Shown here piece after piece: positions 8,610 to 46,330 of a stretch of DNA of 46,330 bases. The notes under the pieces are model-generated. The model had not been told where the DNA came from, did not search any database, and worked only from the letters and a program-made list of their open reading frames with translations. Source of the DNA: a virus; the IMG/VR virus record IMGVR_UViG_3300028706_000433; one strand, written 5' to 3'. Numbering within the stretch: position 1 is the stretch's first letter; every line of letters begins with the position of its first letter. Position numbers and translations under genes: made by a program.

Positions 8610-9810
8610 GTTATACAATTCTAAAGTTTTTTGTATGATGCCTTGGATACATACTCATATATGGCCAAGTGGTAAGGCCTTTCCTTGCTGTATGTCCGAT
8701 AGTACAGTCGAGTATGGTAATCTTAATGATAACAGTTTAGAAGAAATTTGGAACAATGACAAGTACAAACAACTTAGAAAGAATATGATAAATGATGATG
8801 AGACTAAGGAATGTAGTAGATGTTATGAGATGGAGAAGTCTAATGTATTTACATTAAGACAGATGGTAAATAAGCATTATATTGAACATTGGGATAGAGT
8901 GGAATCAACTAAAGAAGATGGAACGGTAGAAGAATTAAATATGGGTTATATGGATATTAGAGTTTCTAATATTTGTAATTTTAAATGTAGAACTTGTGGG
9001 CCAGAACTGAGTAGTGGATGGTATGAGGATCATATAAAACTATATTCACAACCATTAAATCCGAGAATAATGAATATAGCAAATAATGAAAAGTTTTGGA
9101 ATGACTTACAGCCATTACTACTTACAGTAGAAGAAGCTTGTTGGGCTGGTGGAGAACCAATCATCACAGAGGAACATTATAAGGTATTGGATTTTTGGAT
9201 TGAGAATAAGATGGAAGATGTTAGATTAAGATATACAACTAACTTTAGTAATCTTTATTTTAAAAAGAAATCTATATTAGACTATTGGAATAGTTTTAAG
9301 GATGTTAGGATAGCTGCAAGTCTTGATGGTATGGGTAAAAGAGGTGAGTTGATTAGAGCAGGAACTGAGTGGGACGTGATAGAAGATAATAGAAGAGAAA
9401 TGTTAAAAGAATGTCCTGATGTATATTTTGAGATAACACCAACGGTTAGTATTATGAATGTTTATCATCTACCAGATTTTCACAAGAATTGGGTTGAGAG
9501 AGGACTATTAGAACCACAAAATGTAAGAATGAATATACTAACTTATCCAGAAGATTATAGAATACAGATTATACCACCAAAGGAAAGAAAGATATTTATA
9601 GACAAGTATACAGAACATATAAAATGGATTGATGATAACTTTGGAGATGGTGCTGCAAAAAGTGGATTTGAATCAGTTCTTGATTTTTTACAACAAGAAA
9701 ATTATGAGAATCTTATACCTGAATTTATTAGTAGAAATAAAGGATTGGATGAATTAAGAGGAGAATCTTTATTTGAGATTTGTCCAGAGTTGGAATTTTT
9801 TAATGGATAA
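8593..9810 (+). CDS. Radical SAM protein with N-terminal twitch domain
   Basis: FCMMPW...FPCC...CSRC; ICNFKCRTC; WAGGEP. Confidence 0.9.
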   Translation: MKKYSKLYNSKVFCMMPWIHTHIWPSGKAFPCCMSDSTVEYGNLNDNSLEEIWNNDKYKQLRKNMINDDETKECSRCYEMEKSNVFTLRQMVNKHYIEHWDRVESTKEDGTVEELNMGYMDIRVSNICNFKCRTCGPELSSGWYEDHIKLYSQPLNPRIMNIANNEKFWNDLQPLLLTVEEACWAGGEPIITEEHYKVLDFWIENKMEDVRLRYTTNFSNLYFKKKSILDYWNSFKDVRIAASLDGMGKRGELIRAGTEWDVIEDNRREMLKECPDVYFEITPTVSIMNVYHLPDFHKNWVERGLLEPQNVRMNILTYPEDYRIQIIPPKERKIFIDKYTEHIKWIDDNFGDGAAKSGFESVLDFLQQENYENLIPEFISRNKGLDELRGESLFEICPELEFFNG

Positions 9811-10666
9811 TTTTCAATCAATAGGCACAGATAAGTTATCAATTGGTAAAAGAATTAAGATGGGTACAAGTTCTTTGGATACTTTACCATTTAAACAATA
9901 TGGAGTTTTAGATGATACTCAAACCACCGTAGTGTTAATACGAGATGTACTGGATAAATGGAAAAGTGGATATAAACAGGAATTAGAGGAAAAGTTTGAA
10001 CATGGGACTAATCTTTTTAATTTTGTAGAACGACCAGAAAATTTAAATCCAAATGCGTTAAGAAGATTTTGGCAACGATTTAAATATGGTTATTATACAA
10101 CATTTACAAACCCAGACGAAGTGACTTTGGTGGGATTGGAAATAATATCTAAATTACATGATTATTATGCAGATTTAAGTTGGATACATTATAGTCATGC
10201 AGAATTTTGGATGTGGAATGATGATACATATAAATCTTTATGGGAATTAGCATTAAAACCAAATGTATATTTTTTAGATTTAAAAGATTTAAGTAATCCA
10301 AAGTTTTTAGAATGGGCACATTATACTGATGCCGATTGGAAAAAAGTAAAAGAGTTTCCACATAGAAATCCAACCTTGAATAAATTTTGGCCTCAAATGG
10401 AGTTGTTATGGAAGGAATATAATGACGGTAAAATTTTGAAAGGGAAGATATTGGCATCACCATTTTTTGAAACTAAGTTACCAGATTTTATCGAAGGTAA
10501 AGAGTTTACATATAGAGAAATAGATTCTGAAACAAGATTAAAGTTTGATGTACATTTAAAATTGTGTAGGTTTCATCAAGATAGTGTAGATTATATAAGA
10601 ACTAATCCTGAGAGATATTTGAAGTTTGAAAAATTCAAAGGGAGAATAAAATCACGTTTGATATAG
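9803..10666 (+). CDS. Sulfotransferase-like protein (tentative)
   Basis: KMGTSSL resembles the 5'-PSB loop and IRDVLDKWKSGY the 3'-PB motif (RDPxxRxxSxY). ATG 9803 preferred over TTG 9773. Confidence 0.45.
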   Translation: MDNFQSIGTDKLSIGKRIKMGTSSLDTLPFKQYGVLDDTQTTVVLIRDVLDKWKSGYKQELEEKFEHGTNLFNFVERPENLNPNALRRFWQRFKYGYYTTFTNPDEVTLVGLEIISKLHDYYADLSWIHYSHAEFWMWNDDTYKSLWELALKPNVYFLDLKDLSNPKFLEWAHYTDADWKKVKEFPHRNPTLNKFWPQMELLWKEYNDGKILKGKILASPFFETKLPDFIEGKEFTYREIDSETRLKFDVHLKLCRFHQDSVDYIRTNPERYLKFEKFKGRIKSRLI

Positions 10667-12132
10667 AAAAACTAAAAAAGAGTAAAACATTTTGTCCATT
10701 TCCATTTATGAACCTAAACAGTAATACTGATGGTTCGGTAAAGATATGTTGTGCACAAAATGAAAACTTACATATAAAGAAAGATGATGGAGAAACTTTT
10801 AATTTATATGAGGATGATATAGACGAGGTTTGGAATTCTAAACATATTCAAGATATTAGGAAAAGACTTCTAAATGGAGAACAAATACAAGAATGTAATG
10901 TGTGTTGGAATATAGAAAATGCAGAAAAAGATTATGGTGGTCATGATGCACCAAAAAGTACGAGAATAGATAGTATAGAAAGTTATATGGAAAAAGATGG
11001 TATTTTTAATTGGATGGAAGATACACTTGAAAAAAATATACAATCCACTTTAGAATTTGGTTGGGTAAGAGAATCGTTAAAAAGTTTAGAACTTAGATTA
11101 GGAAACCATTGTAATCTAACTTGTAATATGTGTTGGGGTTATAGTAGTAGTAAGATTAATTCAGAGAGATTAACCTTATTAAAGAATAGGGATAAAACTA
11201 TGCCACCGTGGTTGTTTAATATGTGGTATCCAGAAGAATATAATATATCTAAAATTGATATGATGTGGCACGAGAATCCGAAATTCTTAGAAAATTTTAA
11301 AAAAGTAGCACCTACATTAAAACGATTGTATGTTACAGGCGGTGAACCAAGTATTATTGCAGCAAATACTAAAATTATAAATCATTTGATAGCTATAGGT
11401 AACAAGGACTGTCATGTATCTTTTACAACAAATTTGACAACTTGGAATATAGATTTGTATGAGAAATTAGAATTTTTTGACAAGAGTGAGGTTCAGGTTA
11501 GTATAGATGGTTATAAAGAATCTCAAGAATATATAAGATATGGTTCAACGTGGAGTGTAATAGAAGATAATTTTAAGAAGTTAATTCAATTACCAGATAA
11601 AGTTAGAATACAAATCTATACAGTATTTCAAGTATATAATATGTTTGAGACTTATAAAATGATGAAGTGGTTAGATTCTTTACGAATAGATGGATTGTTA
11701 AAAAGAGAAGTTGGGTTTTATTCTATATTGATAGACCAACCATTATATTTAAGGACGAATTTTATGCCTTGGGAAATTAGAGATAAGGCAATGAAACTAT
11801 ACAGAGAATTTTATGATTATTCAACATATGATAATGAATTTTTAGATTTTCATGGAACGGCCAATAAAATCATTTCTTATTTGGAAAGTAATTGGGAGCC
11901 ACATAAAAGTTATGGAAAGTATTGTCAAGGTGTAGAACAGACAGAATTAAACCAACGGAAGATGTTTTATCAATATACACGGTATATGGATAAAGTTAGA
12001 AATACGAGTTTTTTTGAAACTTTTCCAGAATGGCGGGAGTTAAAAGAAGAATTTAATGAAGCTCAAGATGAACATTTAATGACACCTAATTGGTGGATAG
12101 ATGATAGAATACCAAAGAATAAAAGAAAATGA
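10651..12132 (+). CDS. Radical SAM protein with N-terminal twitch domain (start codon non-canonical or mutated)
   Basis: HCNLTCNMC and VTGGEP. The conserved KSKTFCPFPF segment lies upstream of the first ATG (10708). Frame is open from 10630; ATC at 10651 follows a GGGAG RBS. Confidence 0.85.
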   Translation: MTFDIEKLKKSKTFCPFPFMNLNSNTDGSVKICCAQNENLHIKKDDGETFNLYEDDIDEVWNSKHIQDIRKRLLNGEQIQECNVCWNIENAEKDYGGHDAPKSTRIDSIESYMEKDGIFNWMEDTLEKNIQSTLEFGWVRESLKSLELRLGNHCNLTCNMCWGYSSSKINSERLTLLKNRDKTMPPWLFNMWYPEEYNISKIDMMWHENPKFLENFKKVAPTLKRLYVTGGEPSIIAANTKIINHLIAIGNKDCHVSFTTNLTTWNIDLYEKLEFFDKSEVQVSIDGYKESQEYIRYGSTWSVIEDNFKKLIQLPDKVRIQIYTVFQVYNMFETYKMMKWLDSLRIDGLLKREVGFYSILIDQPLYLRTNFMPWEIRDKAMKLYREFYDYSTYDNEFLDFHGTANKIISYLESNWEPHKSYGKYCQGVEQTELNQRKMFYQYTRYMDKVRNTSFFETFPEWRELKEEFNEAQDEHLMTPNWWIDDRIPKNKRK

Positions 12133-13154
12133 GTGATTTAGTAAAAATATTACCAGGAGAAAATAAATACTTAAGTGTTACTTGGCAAGTTAATAATTTT
12201 TGTAATTATAAATGTTCCTATTGTAATGAGGGTAATTGGAGTGGGACTCATAAGAATGAGGATACGGATACATATATACAATTTCTTGATAAGTTAATAA
12301 CAAGATTTCAGTTTAAAGGATATGATTCATTTAAGTTTTTCTTTTCAGGAGGAGAACCCGTATATTGGAAACCATTATTAGAAGTAGCGGAATTTATTCA
12401 TGAGAAATGTGATAAACCTTTATTGGCAATAAATACTAATTTGAGTAATTCAATAAATTGGTGGAAGAAAAATTATCATTTATTTAATGATGTGGTGGCT
12501 AGTTATCATATAGAATTTGTAAATAATGACCGTTATTTAGAGAATGCTAAATTCTTACAAGACAAAATGAATTATTTGGCATTACGAATGATGATGGACG
12601 ATTATCATTTTCAAGAAGTGATTGATGCAGGAAATAAGATTTGGGAAGAAATGGATAATTGTGTTTTGGAGTGGGTGCCATTATTAGATGAGTTGTCCAC
12701 TGGAGCACAACCTTGGTATTATAAAGAGAAATGGAAAAGAGAATTTTTTGAAAAGACTGATGGTTATCAAAGAAAGTGGGGAACGATAAACGAACACAGA
12801 GAATTTAGACCCGCGTATAGTTTAGAGGAATGGAACGATGGTAAAATACAACCAATAAATTCTAATAGATTAGCAGCCGAAAGATTGAATAATTTTGAGG
12901 GTTGGCATTGTTGGATAAATGATGCAATATTTATAAACCCATATGGAGATATTAGTGCGGCTAGTTGTGGAGTTAGTGGTAAAATAGGTAATATAAATGA
13001 GGATTGGATAGAATTTTTTGATTCACCAATTATATGTCCAAAATCACATTGTACTTGTGGAACTGATATAATAATTCCCAAGATAAGTCATAAAGTATAT
13101 AATGGAGAAGTAGATTATCCAGTATTAGATAAGAAAGAAATAAATGCCAGTTAA
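12129..13154 (+). CDS. Radical SAM protein with C-terminal Cys cluster (SPASM/twitch-like)
   Basis: FCNYKCSYC, FSGGEP, C-terminal HC...ASC...ICPKSHCTC. Confidence 0.88.
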   Translation: MSDLVKILPGENKYLSVTWQVNNFCNYKCSYCNEGNWSGTHKNEDTDTYIQFLDKLITRFQFKGYDSFKFFFSGGEPVYWKPLLEVAEFIHEKCDKPLLAINTNLSNSINWWKKNYHLFNDVVASYHIEFVNNDRYLENAKFLQDKMNYLALRMMMDDYHFQEVIDAGNKIWEEMDNCVLEWVPLLDELSTGAQPWYYKEKWKREFFEKTDGYQRKWGTINEHREFRPAYSLEEWNDGKIQPINSNRLAAERLNNFEGWHCWINDAIFINPYGDISAASCGVSGKIGNINEDWIEFFDSPIICPKSHCTCGTDIIIPKISHKVYNGEVDYPVLDKKEINAS

Positions 13155-15381
13155 AACAGCAATATGTATGTGTCCAGCTTGGTCTTTAGAGACTCCACCA
13201 TTAAGTCTTGGATTGTTGGCAGGTGCTCTAAAGAGTAAAGGTCGAGATGTTAAACAATATCATATTAATTTACTTTCTGCAATGCACGTAGATTATGAGA
13301 CTCATCAAGAATTATGGGCCCCAACTGGTCATTTCTTATGGACTAATGACCATTCTTTTGAAGATAAAATATTACCATTGTATGCAGAGTATTGGGATAC
13401 ATTAATAGAGGAATTGTCAACGTTTGATATTGTTACATTCACAACTTACTTCTCAAACATTGTAGTAACGGATTATATAGCTGAGAGATTATATAAGAAA
13501 AATCCCAATCTACATATTTTTTACGGCGGCCCATATTGTTGGAACGCACCACACGGGGGATTACGAATATCACATCCATTAGAAGAACCAGATAGAGATT
13601 GGATTAAACTTTCTTGTGATGCCGAAGGTGAATTAATAATAAATGATTTAGTAGATTGTTATGAGAATAATGAGAATTATGATACCGTACAGGGAATTTG
13701 GGTTTGGGGAGAAAATAAAAAACCGAAATTTACGGGTCTGAGAATACCACAAAAAGATTTAGATGTAATACCGAGAGCAAATTGGGAGGGGATGGAATTA
13801 CAGAATTATGCACCATTTCATTATGAAGGTCATGCACATTTACCATTACAAGGTTCTCGGGGATGTACTTATAAATGTACATTTTGTTCAGAGACAAGAA
13901 TTTTTAGATTTAAAAAAGGTCATTCTATAGCCAGAGAAATAATAGACCAAGTTGAGAAATATAATATAACACATTTCTCATTTGTGGATTCTCTTGTTAA
14001 TGGTTCAATGCCACAGTTTAAGATATTGGTAGATGAATTATGTGATGAAGTGGATAAAAATCCAAAATTGAAAGAATTAAGTCTTGGTGGATATGCAAGA
14101 ACACATGAGGAGATGGATGATAAATTAATGAAGAAAGCGGCCAAGGCAGGGTTTAAATGGTTATCTATTGGAGTGGAAAGTGGCACACCAAAAGTACTTG
14201 AGATTATAGAAAAGAGACAAACAAGAGAAGGAATTGAACAATTATGGAAGGCTTGTTGGAGACACGGAATACGAATGGATGCCAATTGGATTTCAGGATA
14301 TCCAAAAGAGAATCATATTGATTGGATAATTAGTTTATATTTCTTATATGAAAATAAACATTATATGCCAGTAGTTGCAGCAAATCAGTTTCCTGCAGGA
14401 GTAACTCCAGGTACGGCATTAGATCAATATAGAGATGTGTTTTCTATATCACAATATAGTACTATTTTTTATGATTGGGTAAGTGAAAATTTTAAGAACA
14501 CCTTTATTAATAGATTTTTAAGATTAAAATTAACTCACTTATATTTGGAGTTGTGGAAAGTATATTTTTCTGGATTTTGGACAGTTAGAGAAGATTTAAA
14601 ACATTTTAAAGTTAAAAATCCAAATAGTATTTTTAACCAAGAACAATATAAAGAATGGCCTCAAAGAACACAAGGAACTTATTGGCAACAATTACATAAT
14701 AGACACCAATTTCCACAAGAATTTGATATTAAAAAAATAAATTATAATGTTCCTTATTTAGAATTTGCAAATATTCCAGTACACGATGAGTATGATCCTA
14801 CGGTTAGTGTGGAAGATACTATAATGATAGAAACACGGAATGAAATACGTGTATGGTGTTGGTTAATATATCAATTGGTAGGCCCATATGATATTGAGGT
14901 AGAATTCGATGAGGATTATAGTGAGAGAAATATAGATGGTGCCAGATTAATAAGTAAGTTTAAGTTTACTTCAGAATTAGATGGTACTTATAAACTTGAA
15001 ATAAATAATAAATTAACCGTAGATGAGGCCGCCAAACAAACAATACATTTATGTTTACCGAATAAACTCGAACATTTTGATATGTTGGAATATAGAAAAA
15101 GAAAAAGACAGGTAAGAATTAAACACGCAGAAGATAAACATTTAAGAGCTAAACAGTATAAAATAAAAGATACTATAAATTTAAGTGCAGATGGAATGAT
15201 TGTAAATTATTATGATCTATCATTTGATGATAATTACGTAGATGAGGGAAATATGAACGAGAAATATGAAGATGAAAATTATTTGGTAGATAAATATGAA
15301 ATACCAAATTATATTGATGCTTTTGATATTGAAAAATATAAAATTAATTTAAAACGAACAATGATGACGGGAAAACATTAA
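13144..15381 (+). CDS. B12-binding radical SAM protein, 745 aa
   Basis: N-terminal PPLSLGLLAGAL...IFYGGPY cobalamin-binding-type domain; SRGCTYKCTFC; IGVESG; about 280 aa C-terminal extension. Confidence 0.88.
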   Translation: MPVKTAICMCPAWSLETPPLSLGLLAGALKSKGRDVKQYHINLLSAMHVDYETHQELWAPTGHFLWTNDHSFEDKILPLYAEYWDTLIEELSTFDIVTFTTYFSNIVVTDYIAERLYKKNPNLHIFYGGPYCWNAPHGGLRISHPLEEPDRDWIKLSCDAEGELIINDLVDCYENNENYDTVQGIWVWGENKKPKFTGLRIPQKDLDVIPRANWEGMELQNYAPFHYEGHAHLPLQGSRGCTYKCTFCSETRIFRFKKGHSIAREIIDQVEKYNITHFSFVDSLVNGSMPQFKILVDELCDEVDKNPKLKELSLGGYARTHEEMDDKLMKKAAKAGFKWLSIGVESGTPKVLEIIEKRQTREGIEQLWKACWRHGIRMDANWISGYPKENHIDWIISLYFLYENKHYMPVVAANQFPAGVTPGTALDQYRDVFSISQYSTIFYDWVSENFKNTFINRFLRLKLTHLYLELWKVYFSGFWTVREDLKHFKVKNPNSIFNQEQYKEWPQRTQGTYWQQLHNRHQFPQEFDIKKINYNVPYLEFANIPVHDEYDPTVSVEDTIMIETRNEIRVWCWLIYQLVGPYDIEVEFDEDYSERNIDGARLISKFKFTSELDGTYKLEINNKLTVDEAAKQTIHLCLPNKLEHFDMLEYRKRKRQVRIKHAEDKHLRAKQYKIKDTINLSADGMIVNYYDLSFDDNYVDEGNMNEKYEDENYLVDKYEIPNYIDAFDIEKYKINLKRTMMTGKH

Positions 15382-16646
15382 TGAAAGATTTAAAATATTT
15401 TTGTTCCCATTTATTTACTTCGTTGAGTTTTGACCATAGGGGAAAGGCTAGAGTTTGTTGTAACAACTATGAAGTACCAACAGGTGAAGACCTTGAACCA
15501 ATTGATGTATATTCAGAAGATTTTAATGTAAATGATGCATTTAATAGTGATTTGCATGTAAGAATTAGAAAGAATATATTAGAAAATAAACAGGATGAAA
15601 GTTGTAGTAGATGTTGGCAAACAGAAGATAATGGTGCTGAGAGTTATAGAACTATTTGGAATAATACTTTAGCAGGTGGATACCTAAAAGGAATAATGTT
15701 GGATTCAGTAGATGACGATGGTATTATAGATAAACCATTTATAACATTTTTAGATTTTACAATGGGTAATAAATGTAATTTGGTATGTCGAATGTGTAAT
15801 TTAAACAATTCTAATCAATGGGATTTAGAATCTGATTTATTGAATATAGAAATACCTTGGGATTATCCTAGCACTACATTACCAGTAGATGAGCGGTTTA
15901 TGGCTGATGAATTTTTTATGAAAAATTTCATGCATTTAAAACATATAAATTTTCTTGGTGGTGAACCTTTGATTGTGGATGAACATTATGAATTTTTAAA
16001 GAAATGTATTAAGTTTGAAGTAGCACAAAATATAGTTTTATCTTATACCACGAACTTAACAGTTATTAAAAAAGAACTTATGGGATTGTGGGAAAATTTT
16101 AGACACGTTTCAGTAGGAGTAAGTGTTGATGGTGTAGGTAAAGTAAATGATTATATTAGATATCCTTCAAAATGGAAAAATATAGAAAAAAATATTAAAA
16201 AAATATCAACTTATAAAGATGAGATTAGTATGGATTTACAAATACAATCTACTTTTCAAATGATGAATGTTTTGGATTGGGGTAATTTATTAGAATGGAC
16301 ATATAATTTAGGTGATTTGGGTTTTTGGAGATTACCTTTTAGTAATTGGGTAAGTTATCCAGAACATTATGATGCAAAATTATTACCAAAAGATTTAAAG
16401 ACGGAAGCATTAGAAAATATTAATAAGTTTCTTGATAGTAAGAAAGATGTTGTATGGGATATTGGTGAACAACAATGGTTAGGTATTTTGGAAAGTAACT
16501 TAAAGACTTTTGAGAAATCTTTTGATGATGACGAACAAGAGAGATATTACAAAACAATAAAAAAACATACTAAGTTACTTGATTTAAATAGAGGTCAACA
16601 TATTAAGGATTATATTCCAGAATTAGAAAAATTTATATATGAATAA
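15381..16646 (+). CDS. Radical SAM protein with N-terminal twitch domain
   Basis: YFCSHLF...RVCC...CSRC; KCNLVCRMC; FLGGEP. Confidence 0.9.
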   Translation: MKDLKYFCSHLFTSLSFDHRGKARVCCNNYEVPTGEDLEPIDVYSEDFNVNDAFNSDLHVRIRKNILENKQDESCSRCWQTEDNGAESYRTIWNNTLAGGYLKGIMLDSVDDDGIIDKPFITFLDFTMGNKCNLVCRMCNLNNSNQWDLESDLLNIEIPWDYPSTTLPVDERFMADEFFMKNFMHLKHINFLGGEPLIVDEHYEFLKKCIKFEVAQNIVLSYTTNLTVIKKELMGLWENFRHVSVGVSVDGVGKVNDYIRYPSKWKNIEKNIKKISTYKDEISMDLQIQSTFQMMNVLDWGNLLEWTYNLGDLGFWRLPFSNWVSYPEHYDAKLLPKDLKTEALENINKFLDSKKDVVWDIGEQQWLGILESNLKTFEKSFDDDEQERYYKTIKKHTKLLDLNRGQHIKDYIPELEKFIYE

Positions 16647-18135
16647 ATTATATTTTGGTTGGGATTATTATAATTATTCACATCAACCAGACATAAGTAG
16701 AATAATAGAGGAAAAATTTCAAGATTTTAGGCCGGATTTGACATACCCAAACGATTCTGATACTTTACCTTTGTTTAATGATGAGTATATGGTTACTAAT
16801 CCATGGCATCAACTTTTGGATGTATTAAAAGACTATGAAGTAGTAGCACATAGAGATACTACTGAATTAATAGAGAGGGATATTCCATTTATTTATCTTA
16901 TAGGTATAAGATCCGGCCCTCAAGAATGGGAAACTGATGATAGAAATAAATTATTTCATAATATAAAACAACATACTAAAAATTATATTAAAGATGGTAA
17001 GGTATTGGTAATAGTTGATATGTCGGGAGAAGGATATCCAGTAGAAAATTTGGACGAATTAACCTTTTCAGAAACAGGAGTAATTCCAAATATACCAATT
17101 GAAATAGAAAAGGCTGCTGACAGAGAAGACTTTCCATTAACTAATATGTGTTATTTAACTGGAAATGCAGAAGCAGTAAATTATGAACCGACTAAGATTA
17201 ATATTATTAATTTGTGTTGGTCTGAAATTGCTGTAAAGAAGTCAAATAATGAGGTAGATAATATTTTTGAAGAAGTTTTTGAATATAAGAAAAAACATGT
17301 ACGTAGACCAACAACAAAACATTTTTTAAGTCTTTGTAAGTTAGTAAAGGATTGGCGTTTATATCATTCGTTAGGTTTAAATCATTATAATTTACACGAA
17401 AAAGGATTAACTTCATTAATTATACCTAAAAATCAATTAATGATATTAAATGAACGACTTTGGCCAGGAGCAGCAGCTAAACCTTATGATTCGAGGATAG
17501 ATGATTCTTCTGATGAAACTGATTTTGTGTTTAATGAAAATATAACAGAGTTTGAAGAGTATATTAGAGTAATAAAACTTAAACTTCGATTGATAGGTAA
17601 TACGGAACACGGAAAGTATGTAAAATCTGATGAGAATATAAAAAGTTTACTTGAAAAATTACCATTATATGTTGATTTAAAATCATTTAAACAAAACGAT
17701 GGAACACCAATTAGTGGATTTAGTGTATGGGATGAGAGTTTTTATAACGATACATTTTTTTCATATTTGTATGAGAGTTACGCATATAATACTAAAACTA
17801 CTTATATTTCAGAAAAGTTTTGGAAAACAGTTTTAAATTTTCATCCAACATTATTAGTTACTAATCCACATACTTTGAGATATTTAAGAGATAGAGGATA
17901 TAAAACATTCTCACCTTTTATAGATGAGAGTTATGATAACGAAGAAGATTTTGATTTAAGAACAAATATGTTATTATCCGAAGTTAATAGATTATGTGAA
18001 ATGAGTAAAACAGAAATGTTGGATTGGTATTCTAAACAGTCTGATACACTTATTTATAATTTTAAAAAGTATTATGAGGATGATATTATAATAAAACCAA
18101 TTAATAAAATTAAAGGGTTGTATAACATATTATGA
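16639..18135 (+). CDS. Uncharacterised GT-B-like family protein, copy 1 (putative glycosyltransferase)
   Basis: C-terminal FSYLYES...YISEKFWK...FHP...GYKTFSPFIDESYD motif shared with five other ORFs in the window. Confidence 0.55.
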   Translation: MNKLYFGWDYYNYSHQPDISRIIEEKFQDFRPDLTYPNDSDTLPLFNDEYMVTNPWHQLLDVLKDYEVVAHRDTTELIERDIPFIYLIGIRSGPQEWETDDRNKLFHNIKQHTKNYIKDGKVLVIVDMSGEGYPVENLDELTFSETGVIPNIPIEIEKAADREDFPLTNMCYLTGNAEAVNYEPTKINIINLCWSEIAVKKSNNEVDNIFEEVFEYKKKHVRRPTTKHFLSLCKLVKDWRLYHSLGLNHYNLHEKGLTSLIIPKNQLMILNERLWPGAAAKPYDSRIDDSSDETDFVFNENITEFEEYIRVIKLKLRLIGNTEHGKYVKSDENIKSLLEKLPLYVDLKSFKQNDGTPISGFSVWDESFYNDTFFSYLYESYAYNTKTTYISEKFWKTVLNFHPTLLVTNPHTLRYLRDRGYKTFSPFIDESYDNEEDFDLRTNMLLSEVNRLCEMSKTEMLDWYSKQSDTLIYNFKKYYEDDIIIKPINKIKGLYNIL

Positions 18136-19688
18136 ATGATATAAAATTTGGTTGGGATTATTGGGATTACTCAAGACAGCCCGATATTAGAAAAATAATA
18201 AAAAAAGATTTTAATGGATTCTCTCCTGATGGAGTTTATCCAAACGATTCTGATACTTTACCGTTGTTTGATTCTAACTATCAACCAACAAATGCCTGGC
18301 ATAACATTTATAATATATTACAACACCACTATGATGGATATACTGAACTTGAAAATAAGGATACTACGGAGTATATAAAAAATAATGAAACATTTATATA
18401 TGTTATAGCAACAAATGGTGGGCCAGTAACTTGGTGTGGTGGTGATACAGAAAGAAATACTTTATTTCATAATATAAAAGAACACACAAAAGAATATATT
18501 AGAAAAGGTAAGGTGTTAGTTACTATAGATTTGTCGTTTGAAGGATTTCCAATAAATGGTGAGGATAAGTTAAGTATTTTAGATATGGGAAAACATCCTA
18601 ATTTAGCAGAAGTAGTTCATAGAAGAGCAAAAGAAGAAAAATTTCCAATAGAAAATATAGTATTTTTAAGTGCAAATTATAAAGATGTAGAATATTATAA
18701 AAATTGGTGTAAACGAAATAAAATTGAAACACCTATGAATTGGGTTTTACTTGATTGGTGTCAGAGAGCCATTTCTTCAGATTATAAACACTTAACAGAT
18801 AGATTTGAGGATCACTTTAATTATAAAAAAGATAATTTAGATAAAATGAAACATTATTTGTGTTTATGTAGACGATTAAAAACACCCAGAGTATTTCATC
18901 ATATGGCATTAAATTATTTTAATTTGTTAGATAAAGGTTCAGTATCTTGTATTTTACCAAGAAGGGAAATTTCACATTTATTTCCTGAATTAAATATAGA
19001 TAAATCTAAGATGGAAATGGATCATGCTGGAACGAAAACTTTTAGTGATTGTGCAAATTTAGAAGATTATGAATTTAATAAAACCTTGAAAGATAATGAA
19101 ATATTAGATGATATTACTGACGATTTTTATAATAGATTTAAATATCTTGAAGTGTTAGGTCGAACTAAATATTTATATAAAGTTAGAGATAAGAATAATA
19201 TAAGAGATTTTTTAAAAAAGTTACCTTTGACCGTAGATAGAAAAACTCACGATACTATAGATTCGTTTCATCATTGGGATTCTAAACTATATAAAGATAC
19301 TATGTTTTCTTATATATATGAAACTTGGTCTATGTCTACTAATATGGTTTTCTTTTCAGAGAAGATTTATAAAGCAATTTTAAATTTTCATCCATTTTTG
19401 GGAATGATTAATTCAGATACTTTAAAGTTTATGGAAAGAAATGGGTATAAGAGCTTTTCACCGTTTATAGATGAAAATTATGATGATGAAGGTGATCCAG
19501 ATATTAGAAGTGAGTTATTATTAAAAGAAATGCAGAGGTTATGTGAATTACCAATTAATAAAATGTTGGATTGGTATGGTGATCAATCAGATATATTGAT
19601 ACATAATTACGATGTTTTTATGAATAACACACATTTAGAGAAAAGTACAAAACAATTTTTAAAAGTATGGGAGAATATTAATGGCTGA
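18132..19688 (+). CDS. Uncharacterised GT-B-like family protein, copy 2 (tandem paralogue of 16639..18135)
   Basis: Shares FGWDY...QPDI...YPNDSDTLPLF with copy 1 (23-nt identity 16747-16769 vs 18240-18262); FSYIYET...FFSEKIYK...HPF...DENYD. Confidence 0.55.
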   Translation: MNDIKFGWDYWDYSRQPDIRKIIKKDFNGFSPDGVYPNDSDTLPLFDSNYQPTNAWHNIYNILQHHYDGYTELENKDTTEYIKNNETFIYVIATNGGPVTWCGGDTERNTLFHNIKEHTKEYIRKGKVLVTIDLSFEGFPINGEDKLSILDMGKHPNLAEVVHRRAKEEKFPIENIVFLSANYKDVEYYKNWCKRNKIETPMNWVLLDWCQRAISSDYKHLTDRFEDHFNYKKDNLDKMKHYLCLCRRLKTPRVFHHMALNYFNLLDKGSVSCILPRREISHLFPELNIDKSKMEMDHAGTKTFSDCANLEDYEFNKTLKDNEILDDITDDFYNRFKYLEVLGRTKYLYKVRDKNNIRDFLKKLPLTVDRKTHDTIDSFHHWDSKLYKDTMFSYIYETWSMSTNMVFFSEKIYKAILNFHPFLGMINSDTLKFMERNGYKSFSPFIDENYDDEGDPDIRSELLLKEMQRLCELPINKMLDWYGDQSDILIHNYDVFMNNTHLEKSTKQFLKVWENING

Positions 19689-21276
19689 ATATCATGATTA
19701 TGACGTAACAAATCAAAAATACGAGTTTCATAAAATAAAAGATAGAAAAAGAATACCGTTATACCACGAGAGGACTGATAGAGAATATAGTTGGACGGCT
19801 ACATATGAATTTAAAGGTCGTGATGGTAGTATGGGATTACCATTTCCAAATTGTTTACCCGATTCTGTATATGAAGAATTTAAAGAGAGTGAACATGAAG
19901 ATGCAAATTGGTGGATACAGTCTGGAGAGTGTAAAGAAATACCAAGGATTAGGGCGATAGAAAACGAACCATTTATGTTGATGTCACATTATGGGTTTTT
20001 AGTTACTCCAGAATCCGAAGAAAAAAATTATAAAGCAATAAATGAACAGTTTGAGTTATTAATAACAAATAAACGTGATGAAAAATATGTTTATTTAGTA
20101 CAACCTCAATCTATTGATCCAAATCCACAGTATGGTATATTTCAAGTATTGTCTAAAAATATACCGAAGGAAGTAATGGAAGATTTATCTAATGATAGGG
20201 CAGTTTTATGTTTATCTTTTATACAAGAAGGAGATAGTTATGGTGAATTTTTTCCAGAACTGCATAAGTTTTGTGAAAAACATACTATACCTCGAAAGAA
20301 TTTTGTATTTTGTTCGAATAATGCTATGTTAGAACTTGAATATGAAAACTATTGTGAGAAAAATAATATTACAGATAAGTCTACAATGATTTCAATTTAT
20401 TATTATTATAATCATGTTTCAACAATGTATAGATTAGATTATATGTGTTATAAAAATAATTGGGAGCCACCTCAAACAGTAAGAATTTCTAAAGAAGGAG
20501 ATAATTTTGAACATGATGGATTTAGAATAAATACATTAGAGAGATTTAATCCATTGAGAAAGGAAATTAGACCGTATCATTATATGTGTTATAATAGACA
20601 ACCAAAACTACATAGAACATTGATGGTAGCTTATTTGATGAAGGAGAATTTATTAGATAAGGGATTGGTAAGTTTAGCTTCGGTATATGCCATAAGTGCG
20701 GATGAACAAGATCAGTTTATACCATCATATAGAAATTTAAGAACACCAATATATACACAAGAAGAAAAGAACAACATAATGCCTTATTGGGATAAAGTAA
20801 TAAAACAAGGTTCATTTACTGTAGATTTAAATGAAAAAGAAATGGAACACGTTTGGTTATCTTCGTGGATAGATGTTTTCCCAAGTATATATAATCAATG
20901 TTATTTTTCAGTAGTGAGTTCTACAAGTTTTGATACTACTTGGATGCACCCTGACGAGAAATTTTGGAAGGAACTGGGACAATTTAAACCATTTATTTGG
21001 GTTGGCCCAGCACATTCATTACAACATCTACGCACACAGGGATTTAAAACATTTTCACCTTGGATTGATGAAAGTTATGATGAAGAAGAAGATTGTGAAA
21101 AACGGTTCTTGATGATAGTGGATGAAATCAAACGGCTGTGTGATATGAGTTTAGAAGAAATACATGAGTGGTATCACGAAATGGAAGATATTTTGAAACA
21201 TAATTGGAGAAGAATATTAAATTATAATCCTTCACCATTTTTTAAACCATACAATAAACTTTATGATTTACTATAA
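19681..21276 (+). CDS. Uncharacterised GT-B-like family protein, copy 3
   Basis: YMCYNRQPKLHR...YFSVVSST...PDEKFWK...KPFIWVG...GFKTFSPWIDESYD. Confidence 0.55.
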   Translation: MAEYHDYDVTNQKYEFHKIKDRKRIPLYHERTDREYSWTATYEFKGRDGSMGLPFPNCLPDSVYEEFKESEHEDANWWIQSGECKEIPRIRAIENEPFMLMSHYGFLVTPESEEKNYKAINEQFELLITNKRDEKYVYLVQPQSIDPNPQYGIFQVLSKNIPKEVMEDLSNDRAVLCLSFIQEGDSYGEFFPELHKFCEKHTIPRKNFVFCSNNAMLELEYENYCEKNNITDKSTMISIYYYYNHVSTMYRLDYMCYKNNWEPPQTVRISKEGDNFEHDGFRINTLERFNPLRKEIRPYHYMCYNRQPKLHRTLMVAYLMKENLLDKGLVSLASVYAISADEQDQFIPSYRNLRTPIYTQEEKNNIMPYWDKVIKQGSFTVDLNEKEMEHVWLSSWIDVFPSIYNQCYFSVVSSTSFDTTWMHPDEKFWKELGQFKPFIWVGPAHSLQHLRTQGFKTFSPWIDESYDEEEDCEKRFLMIVDEIKRLCDMSLEEIHEWYHEMEDILKHNWRRILNYNPSPFFKPYNKLYDLL

Positions 21277-43261: not shown

Positions 43262-44269
43262 ATGTCAGATGCTTTGGAAGTTTTAAAACGCATAGTGCGT
43301 GAAGAATATAAGAATATAATAGATGGTGTAAATATACATCCAAGTGGATTTAGAGATTATGCACCAGAAGAAGATTCAGATTTTGATGAACCACATAGTA
43401 CTGAAAAAATGGAATCCGTAAATGAAAAAAAAATAGTAAATTCAGCTTTAAGAAAGAATATTACATCTACATTTAAAGATTTAGATAAAAAATTTCCAAA
43501 GAAAGCTCCTCGAAGCCAACTAAAAAAAATAACAGATTATTTAGCATCTAAATATCCAATATACAATCCCAGAAAATACCCAGGATTAAGTTATTTATCT
43601 GCTATGATAGCAAATGAGTTTTATAATTATAGACAAGGTAAAAAAAGTATAAAGCGTGCTATTTCGAGTGTTATAAATGTACAAAGAGGATATCCATCTC
43701 TTGAATCCATTAAAGAAGGAAAACTTACAAATAAAGAGTGTTGTGATAATTGTAAAGAAGGACATACTTGTTGTTCCGTAACTGAGAAAAAAACAATGAA
43801 AATAACTAAAACGAGAATTAAAGAAATAATTAAAGAAGAAATTCAGTCAGTATTAACAGAGGGAACTCGTTGGTCGGTTGGTATTGAAGCACCGAGTGGT
43901 AAAATAGCATCTACCTATGGACATTATGATGGTTACCCAGAATATGCAGGTAAAATGTTAAAACGGTATTATTCCAATACTGGTAAAGTTAAACAATTAA
44001 TGAAACTTGGCAAACAAGGTATTTCTACTATTGATAAAAGTATTAAGGGTGGTGATGACCATTCATTTGGACACCCAAAAAAAGGTGAAACAGTATTTTA
44101 TGGTCGTGATAGAGGTTCAAAAAGTAGTATGTCGAGCACATGGAGAAATAGAGATAAATTAAAATTTAATAGTGGTGATGAATTCGCATATATTTGGTCT
44201 GTAAAAGATAAAAAATGGTATTATAAATCACGATACAGTAATCCACAAGATTGGACGGAGTTAAAATAA
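43262..44269 (+). CDS. Modular protein (putative protease-processed internal head polyprotein) with C-terminal HxDGYP domain
   Basis: Segments separated by ESVNE, ESIKE, SVTE and SVLTE; CCDNC..HTCC motif; final domain GTRWSVG...YGHYDGYPE...FAYIW. Confidence 0.6.
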   Translation: MSDALEVLKRIVREEYKNIIDGVNIHPSGFRDYAPEEDSDFDEPHSTEKMESVNEKKIVNSALRKNITSTFKDLDKKFPKKAPRSQLKKITDYLASKYPIYNPRKYPGLSYLSAMIANEFYNYRQGKKSIKRAISSVINVQRGYPSLESIKEGKLTNKECCDNCKEGHTCCSVTEKKTMKITKTRIKEIIKEEIQSVLTEGTRWSVGIEAPSGKIASTYGHYDGYPEYAGKMLKRYYSNTGKVKQLMKLGKQGISTIDKSIKGGDDHSFGHPKKGETVFYGRDRGSKSSMSSTWRNRDKLKFNSGDEFAYIWSVKDKKWYYKSRYSNPQDWTELK

Positions 44270-44352
44270 TGATAAAATTAAAAGAATTAATAAAAGAACA
44301 CGCATGGAAAAGAAAATTTGGAGAACCTTTACCAACATTAGAAACCTCTACT
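44257..44352 (+). repeat. 96-nt direct repeat (RBS plus shared leader), copy 1
   Basis: Matches 44588-44683 with 4 mismatches by manual comparison. Confidence 0.85.
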
Positions 44353-44595
44353 GAAAAGCATAAAGTTAAAAAAGTAAATGAGGGTGGTATGGGTATATTA
44401 TCTTCCGACCAAGCCGATGTATTACAGGGTATAGTAATGAGAAATAAAAATAAAAATACAAAGGCTATTTTAAATGTTGCATTAAAAAGTGGATTTTTTA
44501 AGGGAGTTGATAAAAAAGAATTATTAGGATATATTGATGGTGCAAGACAATTCGTTAAATATATGAAAAGTCATCCAATGGAAAATAGGAGTTAA
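44269..44595 (+). CDS. Small protein with MIKLKELIKE leader (putative capsid-targeted internal protein)
   Basis: TAATG overlap gives ATG 44269; MIKLKELIKE-HAWKRKFGEPLPTLE...KVNE, then a unique domain. Confidence 0.7.
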   Translation: MIKLKELIKEHAWKRKFGEPLPTLETSTEKHKVKKVNEGGMGILSSDQADVLQGIVMRNKNKNTKAILNVALKSGFFKGVDKKELLGYIDGARQFVKYMKSHPMENRS

Positions 44596-44683
44596 AGTAA
44601 TGATAAAATTAAAAGAATTAATAAAAGAACACTCTTGGAAAAGAAAATTTGGAGAACCTTTACCAACATTAGAATCCTCTACT
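44588..44683 (+). repeat. 96-nt direct repeat, copy 2
   Basis: See copy 1. Confidence 0.85.
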
Positions 44684-44878
44684 AAGAAACATGAGGCTAC
44701 TATAAATGAAAGAAATCCAGATGCTGAATTATATAAAAAGTTAGGAAAAATTGGAACTGATGTAGGTAATCTCGTGAAAAAGTATGAGAAAATGGCAGAT
44801 ACAGATAAGGCCTTAACTACTTTTATGGTAGGTTTACATAGTATGTTAAGTAAAATGGGATATAAGGAATTTAAATAA
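44600..44878 (+). CDS. Small protein with MIKLKELIKE leader (putative capsid-targeted internal protein)
   Basis: MIKLKELIKE-HSWKRKFGEPLPTLE...TINE, then a unique domain. Confidence 0.7.
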   Translation: MIKLKELIKEHSWKRKFGEPLPTLESSTKKHEATINERNPDAELYKKLGKIGTDVGNLVKKYEKMADTDKALTTFMVGLHSMLSKMGYKEFK

Positions 44879-45165
44879 TGATAAAATTAAAAGAAATATT
44901 AACAGAAAAGAAAGAACTTGGTGGAGCTCTTATTAATAAAATAGAGCGACTTACTGATGTAAATAATCATACAGAAGCTAGAATAATTTTGGCAAAAGAA
45001 GTAGATAAAAAATTAGAACAAGCATATAAAGGACTTAATATAGTTCAAGATTATTTAAGACGAGCAAATGAAACAAATATTGCTCGAAACGCATTAGACA
45101 AAAAATTATTCGCATATGCTAAAAAGAAATTTAGTGATTATGATTCTATAGAGAGAGCATTTTAA
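44878..45165 (+). CDS. Small protein with MIKLKEILTE leader (putative capsid-targeted internal protein)
   Basis: TAATG overlap; third copy of the MIKLKE leader. Confidence 0.7.
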   Translation: MIKLKEILTEKKELGGALINKIERLTDVNNHTEARIILAKEVDKKLEQAYKGLNIVQDYLRRANETNIARNALDKKLFAYAKKKFSDYDSIERAF

Positions 45166-45170
45166 TTAAA

Positions 45171-46330
45171 ATGCCCTTCAAATCAGATAAACAGAGAAAA
45201 TGGATGTACGCAAACGATCCAGAAATGGCTAAGAAATGGGCAAAGGAAGAAGCTATAAGGGAAAAGTTACGCCGTGTTATAAGACAAGAAATAAAATCCG
45301 TAAATGAACTAAAGAAAATGACACCAATTCAAAAAATTGAAAAATTGGCTAAAGCTAACAAGTATGGTGAAGTTGATGGTATGCGTTTGAACGGTAAAAC
45401 AGCTAAAACAATAATGAAAGTTTACAATCATCCAAAGATTAAACCATTTCATCGTAAACTTGATGGTTTTAGATCTGATGAAATAATAGATGTATTGTTA
45501 AATTTAACTAAAGTTCTTGGTATAAAAGAAGAACGAGATTATAAAGCAGAATACAAGAAATATGGTTCATCTCCGAAAGCAAAAAAATATAGAGCAGAAT
45601 TAAATCAGTATAACAGAAAAAAAGGAACTTACGGTAATGGTGATGGTAAGGACGCATCACATAAGGGAGGAAAAATTATGGGATTTGAAAAAGAATCTAC
45701 AAATAGAGGTAGAGCAGAAAAAAGTCGTTTGAAAAAAGAAACGGCAAATGAAGGTTCATTCAAAACAACACTTCGCCCACAAAAAAAAGATATTAATAAA
45801 ATGAAAGTAAGATTTAAGAGTGACCCTCGTAGAGTATATACTTTGAAAAGTGTTAAAACTGGTCGTGTTGGGGGAACAAGTTATATGTTTGCTGCACCAG
45901 GTAATAGAAAAGAACATTTTACACCAAAAACTTGGGATTTAGCTAATAAAAAAGGATGGTTATCACTTGAATCTGTGAAAGAAGGAGTTTCTACTATATT
46001 AATTAAGAAAGCAGTAGATATAGCTAAAAAGATGAGTGGTAATATGACAGGGGCTGTTAAGAAAATTGAAAAAATTAAAAAAGGTTTATCTTTAAATTCT
46101 ACAGTAAAAGTGGCACTTCGAAACGCAAATGAATCCGTAAATGAAGGAAACTTAAAATATGTAATTCAATATAAGAAGGATAAAAATAGATATTTAAGTA
46201 ATAAATCCAGAGATGTTAAAAAAGTAAAAGACGCATTACAATTTAAATCTGAAAAGGACGCAAAAAATCAATTAAATGGATTGGATTGGCAATTCAGAGG
46301 AAATTATAAGATTGTTAAGTTAAAAGAATC
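45171..46330 (+). CDS. Lys-rich modular polyprotein, 3'-truncated (absent from the ORF track because no stop lies in the window)
   Basis: Manual translation from ATG 45171 (MPFKSDKQRKWMYANDPEMAKKW...) is open to the window end. Modules are separated by KSVNE, IKEE, TANE, ESVKE and ESVNE; HNH-like module at 45534-45752. Confidence 0.75.
   Translation, partial: MPFKSDKQRKWMYANDPEMAKKWAKEEAIREKLRRVIRQEIKSVNELKKMTPIQKIEKLAKANKYGEVDGMRLNGKTAKTIMKVYNHPKIKPFHRKLDGFRSDEIIDVLLNLTKVLGIKEERDYKAEYKKYGSSPKAKKYRAELNQYNRKKGTYGNGDGKDASHKGGKIMGFEKESTNRGRAEKSRLKKETANEGSFKTTLRPQKKDINKMKVRFKSDPRRVYTLKSVKTGRVGGTSYMFAAPGNRKEHFTPKTWDLANKKGWLSLESVKEGVSTILIKKAVDIAKKMSGNMTGAVKKIEKIKKGLSLNSTVKVALRNANESVNEGNLKYVIQYKKDKNRYLSNKSRDVKKVKDALQFKSEKDAKNQLNGLDWQFRGNYKIVKLKE

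Follow-up and report, generated by a model that had tools for sequence, protein, structure and literature searches.

A locus of leader-tagged and chained small proteins in a viral sequence, probably encoding T4-style internal head proteins with exchangeable modules

Five consecutive genes, here named A to E, close a viral sequence from IMG/VR (record IMGVR_UViG_3300028706_000433; the whole 46,330-nt stretch analysed is referred to as the window). They are best explained as encoding prohead-core or internal-head proteins of a marine T4-type ("far-T4") myovirus, a reading we consider reasonably probable, in which T4-style targeting and gp21-type processing would be combined with exchangeable cargo polyproteins. 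The underlying observation of shared leaders and recurrent junction motifs was confirmed and stands far above chance; ORFs A and E consist of modules strung together like beads, with breakpoints of homology at ESVNE-type joints. By analogy with T4 biology, an N-terminal amphipathic leader would bring each protein to the scaffolding core during prohead assembly: the recruiting leader MIKLKELIKE is hydrophobic at positions 4 and 7, has I/L at position 8 and Glu at position 10, and in B and C is continued by the conserved RKFG(D/E)PLPT(L/F) piece. A gp21-type serine protease would then cleave after Glu in (V/I/L)-(N/K/T)-E, taking off the tag through one or two cuts and dividing both A and E wherever an ESVNE-type joint occurs, and the freed Lys-rich modules of 50-135 residues would remain with the DNA and probably exit the head with it. 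Judged from sequence, the tagged proteins and chains probably enter the capsid and are separated there by cleavage, and their cargo may plausibly consist of DNA-associated internal proteins or of early-acting modifiers of the host or its defences, as in T4 IPI and Alt.

All five genes were called on the plus strand. ORF A (43262..44269) is a chain of 335 aa, starting with an acidic module (A1, residues 1-55) that ends in ESVNE (51-55), followed by a basic helical module (A2, 56-147) and the joint ESIKE (148-152), a Cys-rich mini-module (A3, 153-175, CCDNCKEGHTCC) whose last residues are SVTE (172-175), an internal class-2 leader (A4, 176-200, MKITKTRIKEIIKEEIQSVLTE) containing VLTE (197-200), and a member of the phrog_1987 domain family (A5, 201-335). 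Gene B (44269..44595; 108 aa counted from ATG) joins a tag at residues 1-38, MIKLKELIKE-HAWKRKFGEPLPTLETSTEKHKVKKVNE, with KVNE at 35-38, to a basic module (B1, 39-108, GGMGIL...KYMKSHPME). In gene C (44600..44878; 92 aa), a tag as in B, ending ATINE (residues 1-37, TINE at 34-37), precedes a basic module unrelated to B1 (C1, 38-92). Gene D (44878..45165; 95 aa) has the minimal 10-aa leader MIKLKEILTE and then module D1 (KKELGG...). ORF E (45171..46328), a polyprotein of >386 aa, is open at the window end. Its N-terminus is a DUF3008-like piece with a leader-like helix ending in KSVNE (42-46, P1 Glu 46), and its later modules have bounds at Glu 120, 194, 271 and 325, with ESVKE at 267-271 and ESVNE at 321-325; in near-identical relatives the protein extends as VKLKE-SVNE-... 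by 110 to 280 residues more. Close matches to A and E (P0121 and P0002) are encoded on contigs of 20.6 kb and 29.8 kb. Every junction claimed in the earlier note is therefore there, in A, B, C and E. The heads of B and C share a 96-nt cassette repeat (44257..44352 and 44588..44683, plus strand), comprising the ribosome site GGAG, the TAATG stop/start overlap and tag coding sequence; there are 4 mismatches between the two copies, and both include GGAGTTAAA(A/G)TAATG, that is, ribosome site and start. A blastn search of the region against cultured phages gave no match.

The leader was claimed to be shared by three adjacent genes, and it is: B and C begin with MIKLKELIKE and D with MIKLKEILTE, and a regex scan of the window's six frames matched it only at these three starts. 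Its described length of 10 aa applies to the part common to B, C and D; in B and C the tag is longer, about 38 residues, which had been missed. The long tag runs from the leader through RKFG(D/E)PLPT(L/F), in B and C the conserved core RKFGEPLPTL, to a second [ILV]-x-E, giving two predicted cut sites. A profile of it matched 729 protein clusters (at 50% identity) with 60-116 bits, nearly always from residue 1, and the tag was N-terminal in 144 of the best 150 matches. Among these 144, 107 carried [ILV]xE within residues 34-58, and for 75 of these 107 the P2 residue was N, K or T. Behind the tag, 86 proteins carried cargo of 44 unrelated groups; in relatives, module D1 also follows a full tag, whose end reads (M/L)(M/L)TE. 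Neither the cultured Flavobacterium phage immuto nor contigs G002 and G003 carry the class-1 tag, and by its distribution among the sequences the long tag is restricted to a sub-lineage. Counting against the capsid-cargo reading, A and E start without the class-1 tag, and their N-termini are only leader-like.

The likeness to T4 lies at the positions that matter for targeting. The determinants of the T4 capsid-targeting sequence (CTS) are positions 4, 7, 8 and 10, and the gp21 motif is L/I-X-E (PMC9026906). The window leaders carry L4, L7, I8 and E10 (MIKLKELIKE) or L4, I7, L8 and E10 (MIKLKEILTE), and the T4 leaders read from NC_000866 (IPII and IPIII, MKTYQEFIAE; gp24, MAKINELLRE; gp22, MLKEQLIAE) share this pattern. 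The description of the leader as CTS-like is thus borne out at the determinant positions.

The junctions were compared with the rest of the window. Plain [VIL]xE was not enriched in the locus (2.07 vs 1.89 per 100 aa) and is equally common in the window's other 40 ORFs, which, together with the unreliability of some long, low-identity alignments among K-rich proteins, would favour a chance or low-complexity likeness in Lys/Glu-rich, AT-rich coding sequence. The more specific motifs behave differently: [VIL][NKT]E reached 1.87 vs 0.44 per 100 aa, and [EK]S[VIL]xE was enriched tenfold (0.49 vs 0.05 per 100 aa), with shuffle P = 0.006 for A and P = 0.002 for E. Homology edges coincided with junctions in 42 of 79 cases against 11.6 expected (P about 1e-15). 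Given these shuffles and this coincidence, the tag profile scores and a 96-nt repeat with just four mismatches, the chance reading was rejected and retains practically no probability.

The modules were also said to be unrelated to one another, and the comparison bears this out: individual modules have counterparts that occur alone as small proteins in unrelated phages, and homology edges gather at the junctions. The same module can be found behind the tag, behind another leader or within a chain, and always begins directly after Glu; B1, for instance, is preceded by LIKE|, SLKE| or VNE| depending on context. P3 is V, I or L in every junction, and the counterpart of the T4 FLTE|A site in the capsid protein is LIDE|A. 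Comparison thus supports the junctions as real boundaries between modules, conforming to the L/I-x-E rule once V is admitted at P3 as well, and in sequence the ESVNE joint fits the head-protease cutting rule of the relatives. Within module interiors of the window, [VIL]xE was absent from 752 aa where 4.9 were expected (P = 0.005); since the avoidance is weak across the wider set of relatives (33 observed vs 45.6 expected, P = 0.02), it was not taken as a main argument.

The joint is also conserved as DNA, which the earlier note had overlooked. ESVNE sites are coded by exactly the same 15 nt, GAATCCGTAAATGAA, in 55 of 82 cases; the junction Ser codon is the rare TCC in 20/30 cases against 7/163 elsewhere in the same six proteins, and the joint Val codon is GTA 100 times and GTT three times. 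Modules are gained, lost and swapped at the exact joint between near-identical phages, as between the relatives P0001 and P0002, where one module was swapped or deleted at ESVNE. Module E6 with its upstream joint (46125..46330, plus strand) has a nucleotide identity of 100% with L002 and L003 and of 99.5% with L008 and others, although the modules next to it are different, which marks E6 as a recently exchanged cassette. Because it is conserved as one 15-nt word, the joint probably acts as a recombination joint as well.

Such strong nucleotide conservation could mean that the main role of the joint lies at the DNA or RNA level, which counts against the capsid-cargo reading. Taken to its end, this would make A and E uncut multi-module proteins, with ESVNE a linker kept mainly as a DNA-level recombination joint or RNA signal and the leader a shared N-terminal helix spread by the 96-nt cassette head, neither protease nor capsid being involved. 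The nearly fixed coding of the joint, its rare Ser codon and the recombination of cassettes there would all agree, as would the fact that several modules stand alone as genes in phages lacking a gp21-type protease (such as T7-like cyanophages and one complete genome of 32 kb), so that the modules themselves do not require the capsid route. We nevertheless consider uncut proteins improbable, as they leave unexplained why Glu with V/I/L two places back precedes every module even behind different leaders, why a second [ILV]xE ends the tag at a fixed distance, why the genes cluster around an S77 protease and scaffold, and why the leader mirrors the functional pattern of the T4 CTS; moreover, a joint used for recombination could also be cut, so the two roles do not compete. 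On the reading of A to E as processed internal-head proteins, it is possible, and we suggest it tentatively, that the system amounts to plug-and-play capsid cargo, in which the word GAATCCGTAAATGAA would serve as head-protease site and recombination joint at once, cassettes would be exchanged either as tagged genes or as polyprotein beads, and the RKFGDPLPTL tag of about 38 residues would be a new portable capsid address.

A gp21-like protease, which the earlier note had proposed to look for, was found in relatives carrying these modules. Peptidase_S77 (T4 gp21-type) was present on 6 of the 14 related contigs searched (G001, G002, G007, G012, G013 and G014), and the G001 enzyme aligns to T4 gp21 (PDB 5JBL) and retains His, Ser and Asp. 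With such an enzyme next to genes of this kind in related contigs, the refuting condition set in the earlier note, a missing T4-type protease, does not tell against the reading. On two contigs its gene lies between the tag gene and the polyproteins; L003 has the order tag gene (6075-6401), protease (6401-7015) and polyproteins (7594-9600 and 9761-11047). Another relative's protease gene lies on the minus strand of L056 at 2646-3269, and the cultured Flavobacterium phage vB_FspM_immuto encodes an S77 protease and an 841-aa protein containing NESVNE|G and KESLNE|D. In G003, chain and leader genes stand immediately upstream of the scaffold and gp23-type capsid genes. In G001, which is syntenic with the window, the protease precedes a scaffold-like protein that has the tag core in its interior, and next comes an acidic protein starting with the tag; the G001 locus, however, lies about 16 kb away from the protease, which counts against the capsid-cargo reading.

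These neighbourhoods also bear on a role confined to assembly, in which A to E would be scaffold or core parts like T4 gp22, gp67 and gp68, cut up and expelled at maturation rather than carried as cargo. Those T4 proteins do resemble the present ones in having genes beside the protease, leader-like N-termini and multiple L/I-x-E sites. The presence of the tag core inside one acidic, scaffold-like protein and of the tag at the N-terminus of another, strongly acidic one beside the protease, the interleaving with scaffold genes in G003 and L003, and the failure of Pfam, PHROG and NCBIfam searches to recognise an effector domain in any module point the same way. Scaffolds, though, are acidic assembly parts cut into many small peptides and expelled, whereas the window modules are basic, rich in Lys like T4 IPII and IPIII, predicted to fold compactly and free of internal sites; 44 unrelated cargo groups in 86 tagged proteins, with fast cassette turnover, would also be unexpected for parts that must fit an assembly. 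An assembly-only role is accordingly regarded as unlikely, and processed internal-head proteins remain the preferred reading.

The composition and predicted structure of the modules agree with that preference. They span 50-135 residues with pI 9.2-10.6, and the proteins contain 14-19% Lys, matching T4 IPII and IPIII (pI 9.6-9.7, 13.5-15% Lys). Predicted structures resembled beads on a string (pTM 0.30 and 0.38), and the junctions mapped to linkers of low confidence or to the ends of helices. As the models place the junctions outside confident folded blocks, the refuting condition that they lie inside folded domains does not tell against the earlier claim; the first junction of E (Glu 46), though, falls where a long helix modelled with confidence ends and not in a loop, which counts against the capsid-cargo reading. 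Searches of Pfam, PHROGs and NCBIfam for module function returned only families of unknown function and the DUF3008-like N-terminus, Foldseek against BFVD and PDB gave no credible match, and the ESM Atlas yielded unnamed phage clusters only. Module E3 had been considered as an early gene of T7-like cyanophages; this idea was dropped because its relative in P-SSP2 sits between terminase genes.

Among known systems, the closest is that of the T4 internal proteins (IPI, IPII, IPIII and Alt). Both have a short, Glu-ending N-terminal leader that is hydrophobic at positions 4 and 7 with I/L at 8, one leader on unrelated, basic, hypervariable small proteins from adjacent genes, and a gp21-family (S77) protease in the lineage with a hydrophobic-x-Glu cutting rule (here predicted). 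No Pfam, PHROG or NCBIfam match to the IPI, IPII or IPIII families was found, so the system is an analogue and not a homologue. Unlike T4, it also has the B/C tag of about 38 residues with its RKFG(D/E)PLPT(L/F) core and predicted cutting at two sites, putative cargo in chains of up to six or seven modules with a fixed ESVNE joint, frequent Val at P3, and a joint conserved as DNA. The inner-body and ejection proteins of phiKZ, 201phi2-1 and SPN3US are processed by an S80 prohead protease and delivered to the host (PMC5694885, PMC9026906). They share head-internal proteins with Glu cut sites (here predicted), identical N-termini in paralogs, and propeptides that exceed the T4 CTS in length and contain several cut sites (again predicted here); they differ in the motif S/A/G-x-E, a diverged S80 enzyme and propeptides often >100 residues, and for those phages no chaining of small, exchangeable modules has been described. 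The junctions have V/I/L at P3 throughout, and the relatives' protease matches S77 and T4 gp21, which separates the present system from the phiKZ type. For polyvalent proteins of phages and conjugative elements (Iyer et al. 2017, PMC5512222), it has been proposed that they are packaged and delivered and that processing yields separate units; they likewise combine several unrelated modules per polypeptide, with genes near virion genes. They carry recognisable enzyme or LPD domains and an embedded metallopeptidase for release, whereas the modules here are small and release would occur in trans, by the head-maturation protease at a fixed joint; no embedded peptidase (MPTase), effector or LPD domain was found in A, E or longer relatives. 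A literature search on the motifs returned nothing relevant; in the library searched, no paper describing this system came up, nor did proteomic data for this lineage.

The T4 CTS is the classic phage route for loading proteins into the head and has been used to package foreign proteins. If the reading is correct, widespread uncultured marine and freshwater T4-type phages, as indicated by the 729 tag-bearing clusters and about 2950 polyprotein relatives, would have made this route a modular delivery system. Through its conserved long tag and fixed joint, small unrelated proteins by the dozen could be loaded, set free by the maturation protease and shuffled between phages. It would provide an extensive list of candidate effectors for the first minute of infection, a defined tag and protease site for laboratory tests, and an example of a peptide motif under selection both as protein and as DNA.

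The last five ORFs of the window comprise two multi-module chains, A (43262-44269, + strand) and E (45171-46328, + strand, open at the window end), and, between them, three small genes, B (44269-44595, +), C (44600-44878, +) and D (44878-45165, +). As the earlier note reported, the three adjacent genes share a common 10-residue leader (MIKLKELIKE in B and C, MIKLKEILTE in D), and a six-frame scan of the window located the MIKLKE leader exclusively at these three starts. B and C are further related by a 96-nt repeat (44257-44352 versus 44588-44683, with 4 of 96 nucleotides mismatched), within which lie the ribosome site GGAG, the stop/start overlap TAATG and the codons of a long, class-1 tag, MIKLKELIKEH(A/S)WKRKFGEPLPTLE(T/S)ST; D matches this repeat over its first 30 nt only. 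The D leader (44878-44907), in which MIKLKE is joined straight to the residues of the final predicted cut site, ILTE, looks by its sequence like a collapsed long tag. Among relatives, a full tag ending in PM(M/L)TE precedes the D1 module.

Alignment of 15 tags yielded the consensus MIKLKKLIKE-x(2-7)-RKFG(D/E)PLPT(L/F)-x(2)-(V/I)-x-(E/K)-x-H, and the profile derived from it, run against 1.84 billion cluster representatives, retrieved 729 proteins at E <= 0.001, including 191 at E <= 1e-10. The tag was N-terminal in 144 of the best 150 of the 729 matches, and 107 of these 144 proteins carried a second [ILV]xE with its Glu at residues 34-58, most commonly 38-43; among the 107, 75 had N, K or T at P2. 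The post-tag parts of 86 proteins fell into 44 groups with undetectable mutual similarity, so that a single profile-defined tag precedes many cargos. Relatives also commonly carry leaders of a second class, MKITK-x-QLKEIIKEE..S(V/I/L)xxE, of which the window has an internal instance in A (residues 179-200) and a looser one in E (residues 29-46). The class-1 tag was absent from the N-termini of both chains.

Every junction string listed in the earlier note was recovered in the window. Plain [VIL]xE was not enriched in A-E relative to the other 40 window ORFs (2.07 vs 1.89 per 100 aa); in the same comparison, [VIL][NKT]E was enriched fourfold and [EK]S[VIL]xE tenfold, and composition-preserving shuffles gave P = 0.006 for the junction motifs of A and P = 0.002 for those of E. 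Relatives were collected as 53 related loci from IMG/VR scans and, by protein search, as about 2950 proteins resembling E and 119 resembling A, among which single modules reappear in many differing orders. Homology edges coincided with a junction Glu (-6 to +3 residues) at 42 of 79 distinct internal edges, against 11.6 expected, and judged from these alignments the junctions are real module borders. The interiors of the ten window modules (752 aa) contained no [VIL]xE, compared with 4.9 expected from shuffles (P = 0.005), and 66 module interiors from relatives showed a weak depletion (33 observed vs 45.6 expected, P = 0.02). The leader and junction observation as a whole is confirmed.

Structure prediction placed the junctions outside the compact folds of the chains. 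The AlphaFold2 model of E, based on a 35-row alignment (mean pLDDT 62, pTM 0.30), alternates confident blocks with low-confidence stretches; the junction Glu residues 120, 194, 271 and 325 fall within loops or linkers of low confidence, and Glu 46 is in the final turn of an isolated long helix (17-49), two residues ahead of a break. In the model of A (pLDDT 59, pTM 0.38), all four junctions (Glu 55, 152, 175 and 200) are located outside the confident blocks 59-147 and 201-335. Neither model thus contained a junction within a compact fold, the arrangement that the earlier note had named as counting against its reading.

The clearest border case is the B1 module (GGMGIL...KYMKSHPME), for which four contexts are known: it follows the long tag in the window (...KKVNE|GG), a bare leader in L009 (MIKLKDLIKE|GG), a different leader in L003 (MKITKTQLKQMIREEIQSLKE|GG), and it lies within chains, between two ESVNE joints, in L034, L039, L048, L051, L052, L053 and L008. 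In L037, B1 is fused to C1 through HPMESVISE|RNPDAEL; in the window, a 37-residue tag stands at this boundary together with a stop codon and a ribosome site. D1 invariably starts with KKELGG after (M/L)(M/L)TE, with long and minimal tags alike. Two relatives of E are near-identical to it overall, with nearly the same flanks around the E5 site in all three; P0001 carries a B1-type module in place of E5, and P0002 has neither, so that the cassettes change at the joint. At the DNA level, E6 (46125-46330) matches L002 and L003 with 100% identity and L008 with 99.5%; its neighbouring modules reach 89% identity at most or are unrelated. No assignable function was found for any module in Pfam, PHROGs, NCBIfam, Foldseek or the ESM Atlas. 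Some modules also occur as plain small genes of phages that lack a gp21-type protease, with relatives of E3 in T7-like cyanophages and a DUF3008-like E1 in a complete 32-kb genome. A Cys-rich mini-module, CCDNCKEGHTCC, stands directly before a junction in A (43721-43786, residues 154-175), and similar pieces (CCGNCKEGKECC, GDCGCGGTHACAC, NDCSCSETTSCSC) precede junctions in relatives (including L009 10001-11701) and in tagged proteins; the mini-module is possibly a small peptide with a metal or disulfide knot.

The joint is also conserved at the nucleotide level. Among 151 distinct junction sites, 82 encode ESVNE, 55 of them exactly as GAATCCGTAAATGAA, a word conserved at ESVNE-type joints such as those at 43412-43426, 45294-45308 and 46134-46148. 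In six polyproteins, the junction Ser used the rare codon TCC in 20 of 30 cases, compared with 7 of 163 other Ser codons of the same proteins (TCC accounts for 3.3% of Ser codons across the window). Junction Val was encoded by GTA 100 times and by GTT three times, against a background of 45:40. This synonymous-codon preference goes beyond what protease recognition can explain and, combined with the swapping of cassettes at this joint, suggests as the simplest reading that the 15-nt word would also be a site of module recombination. The joint may also have an RNA-level role: read in its two other frames, GTAAATGA gives the stop codons TAA and TGA.

The capsid protein of the related contig G003 belongs to the gp23 family, its nearest named relatives being an uncultured 484-kb phage (57% identity) and Microcystis phage Mel-JY01 (55%), followed by Flavobacterium immuto phages (53%) and Rhodothermus phage RM378 (37%); by this sequence evidence the lineage is classed as "far-T4". 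The equivalent of the capsid maturation site is LIDE|A, the T4 counterpart being FLTE|A. A search of 14 related contigs detected Peptidase_S77, the T4 gp21 family, on six of them, and since the contigs are fragments, its non-detection on the other eight means little. The G001 protease aligns to the T4 gp21 structure 5JBL with His, Ser and Asp kept.

G001 is syntenic with the window (glycosyl island, A homologue, small leader genes, E homologue) and continues with a GH108 lysozyme, a 2463-aa multi-enzyme protein, terminase, portal, three small proteins (one beginning MLKLKNLLFTE), the protease, a scaffold-like protein with internal WKDRNWGDPLPTLADY and an acidic protein with the N-terminus VIKLKDIIKESKWSDRKWGDPLPTLEDY. 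In L003, the protease follows a tag gene and is itself followed by two short genes, a seven-joint chain of 668 aa and a tagged chain of 428 aa, and L049, judged by coordinates, has the same layout. In G003, a chain and leader genes lie immediately upstream of a scaffold-like protein beginning MAKLKDILNE, which is followed by a bS21 gene, by an acidic protein resembling gp22 and by the capsid gene. In the syntenic L009, the E homologue is followed (11727-19725) by the lysozyme, which combines GH108 with PG_binding_3, and by the 2463-aa protein, in which a kinase of the AAA_33/zeta-toxin-like kind is joined to a CCA-adding/poly(A)-polymerase head, an HD domain and a cytidylyltransferase-like domain. 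Ribosomal protein bS21 is encoded by the phages themselves (Pfam Ribosomal_S21, E = 8e-11): in L008 (3417-3620) and L003 (13278-13544) its gene lies in the head-gene cluster, with the scaffold-like protein on one side and the gp22-like and capsid genes on the other.

The window itself has a G+C content of about 30%, with every gene on the + strand and no tRNA genes found. Positions 1-43192 form a same-strand 43-kb island of sugar-nucleotide/glycan and modification genes. Three of its products are of the GT7 type (beta-4-galactosyltransferase-like), and two of these three carry a fused lectin-like domain, Laminin_G_3 or sialidase-N. Radical-SAM/SPASM proteins number at least seven, a B12-binding domain being present in one, and the island further encodes four epimerase/dehydratases, a dTDP-sugar 3,5-epimerase, a Nol-type carbamoyltransferase, a UDP-sugar dehydrogenase and oxygenases of the PhyH and 2OG types. 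Glycan/modification genes also lie upstream of the A homologue in G001.

In T4, gp21 cleaves after Glu in L/I-X-E, and the first ten residues of IPIII are enough for encapsidation, positions 4 and 7 serving targeting and positions 8 and 10 processing (PMC9026906; PMC3012670; PMC5694885). The N-termini in the T4 record are MKTYQEFIAE (IPII and IPIII), MAKINELLRE (gp24), MELITELFDE (Alt) and MLKEQLIAE (gp22). At the positions named for the T4 capsid-targeting sequence (CTS), the window leaders carry L4, L/I7, I/L8 and E10. Mature IPII and IPIII have a pI of 9.6-9.7 and 13.5-15% Lys, comparable to the window modules (pI 9.2-10.6) and proteins (14-19% Lys); A1, which is acidic, and A3, which is Cys-rich, are the exceptions. 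A full-text search of openly licensed papers and preprints found related literature on the T4 CTS, phiKZ/SPN3US-group processing and the polyvalent-protein concept, and no description of protease-jointed cargo chains, the class-1 tag or the ESVNE joint.

Capsid targeting and gp21-type processing of the chains into small proteins, as the earlier note proposed, is the best-supported predicted mechanism, one that we consider reasonably probable from the sequence comparisons. The small proteins may further be injected anti-defence effectors, a candidate role raised in that note. The cultured Flavobacterium phage vB_FspM_immuto_2-6A, which has an S77 protease and lacks the long class-1 tag, encodes an 841-aa protein (L063 1105-3630) with NESVNE|G and KESLNE|D upstream of its terminase, portal and protease genes, and is a possible laboratory model. 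The window system is a new variation on the T4 CTS/internal-protein system, rather than a member of it by homology.
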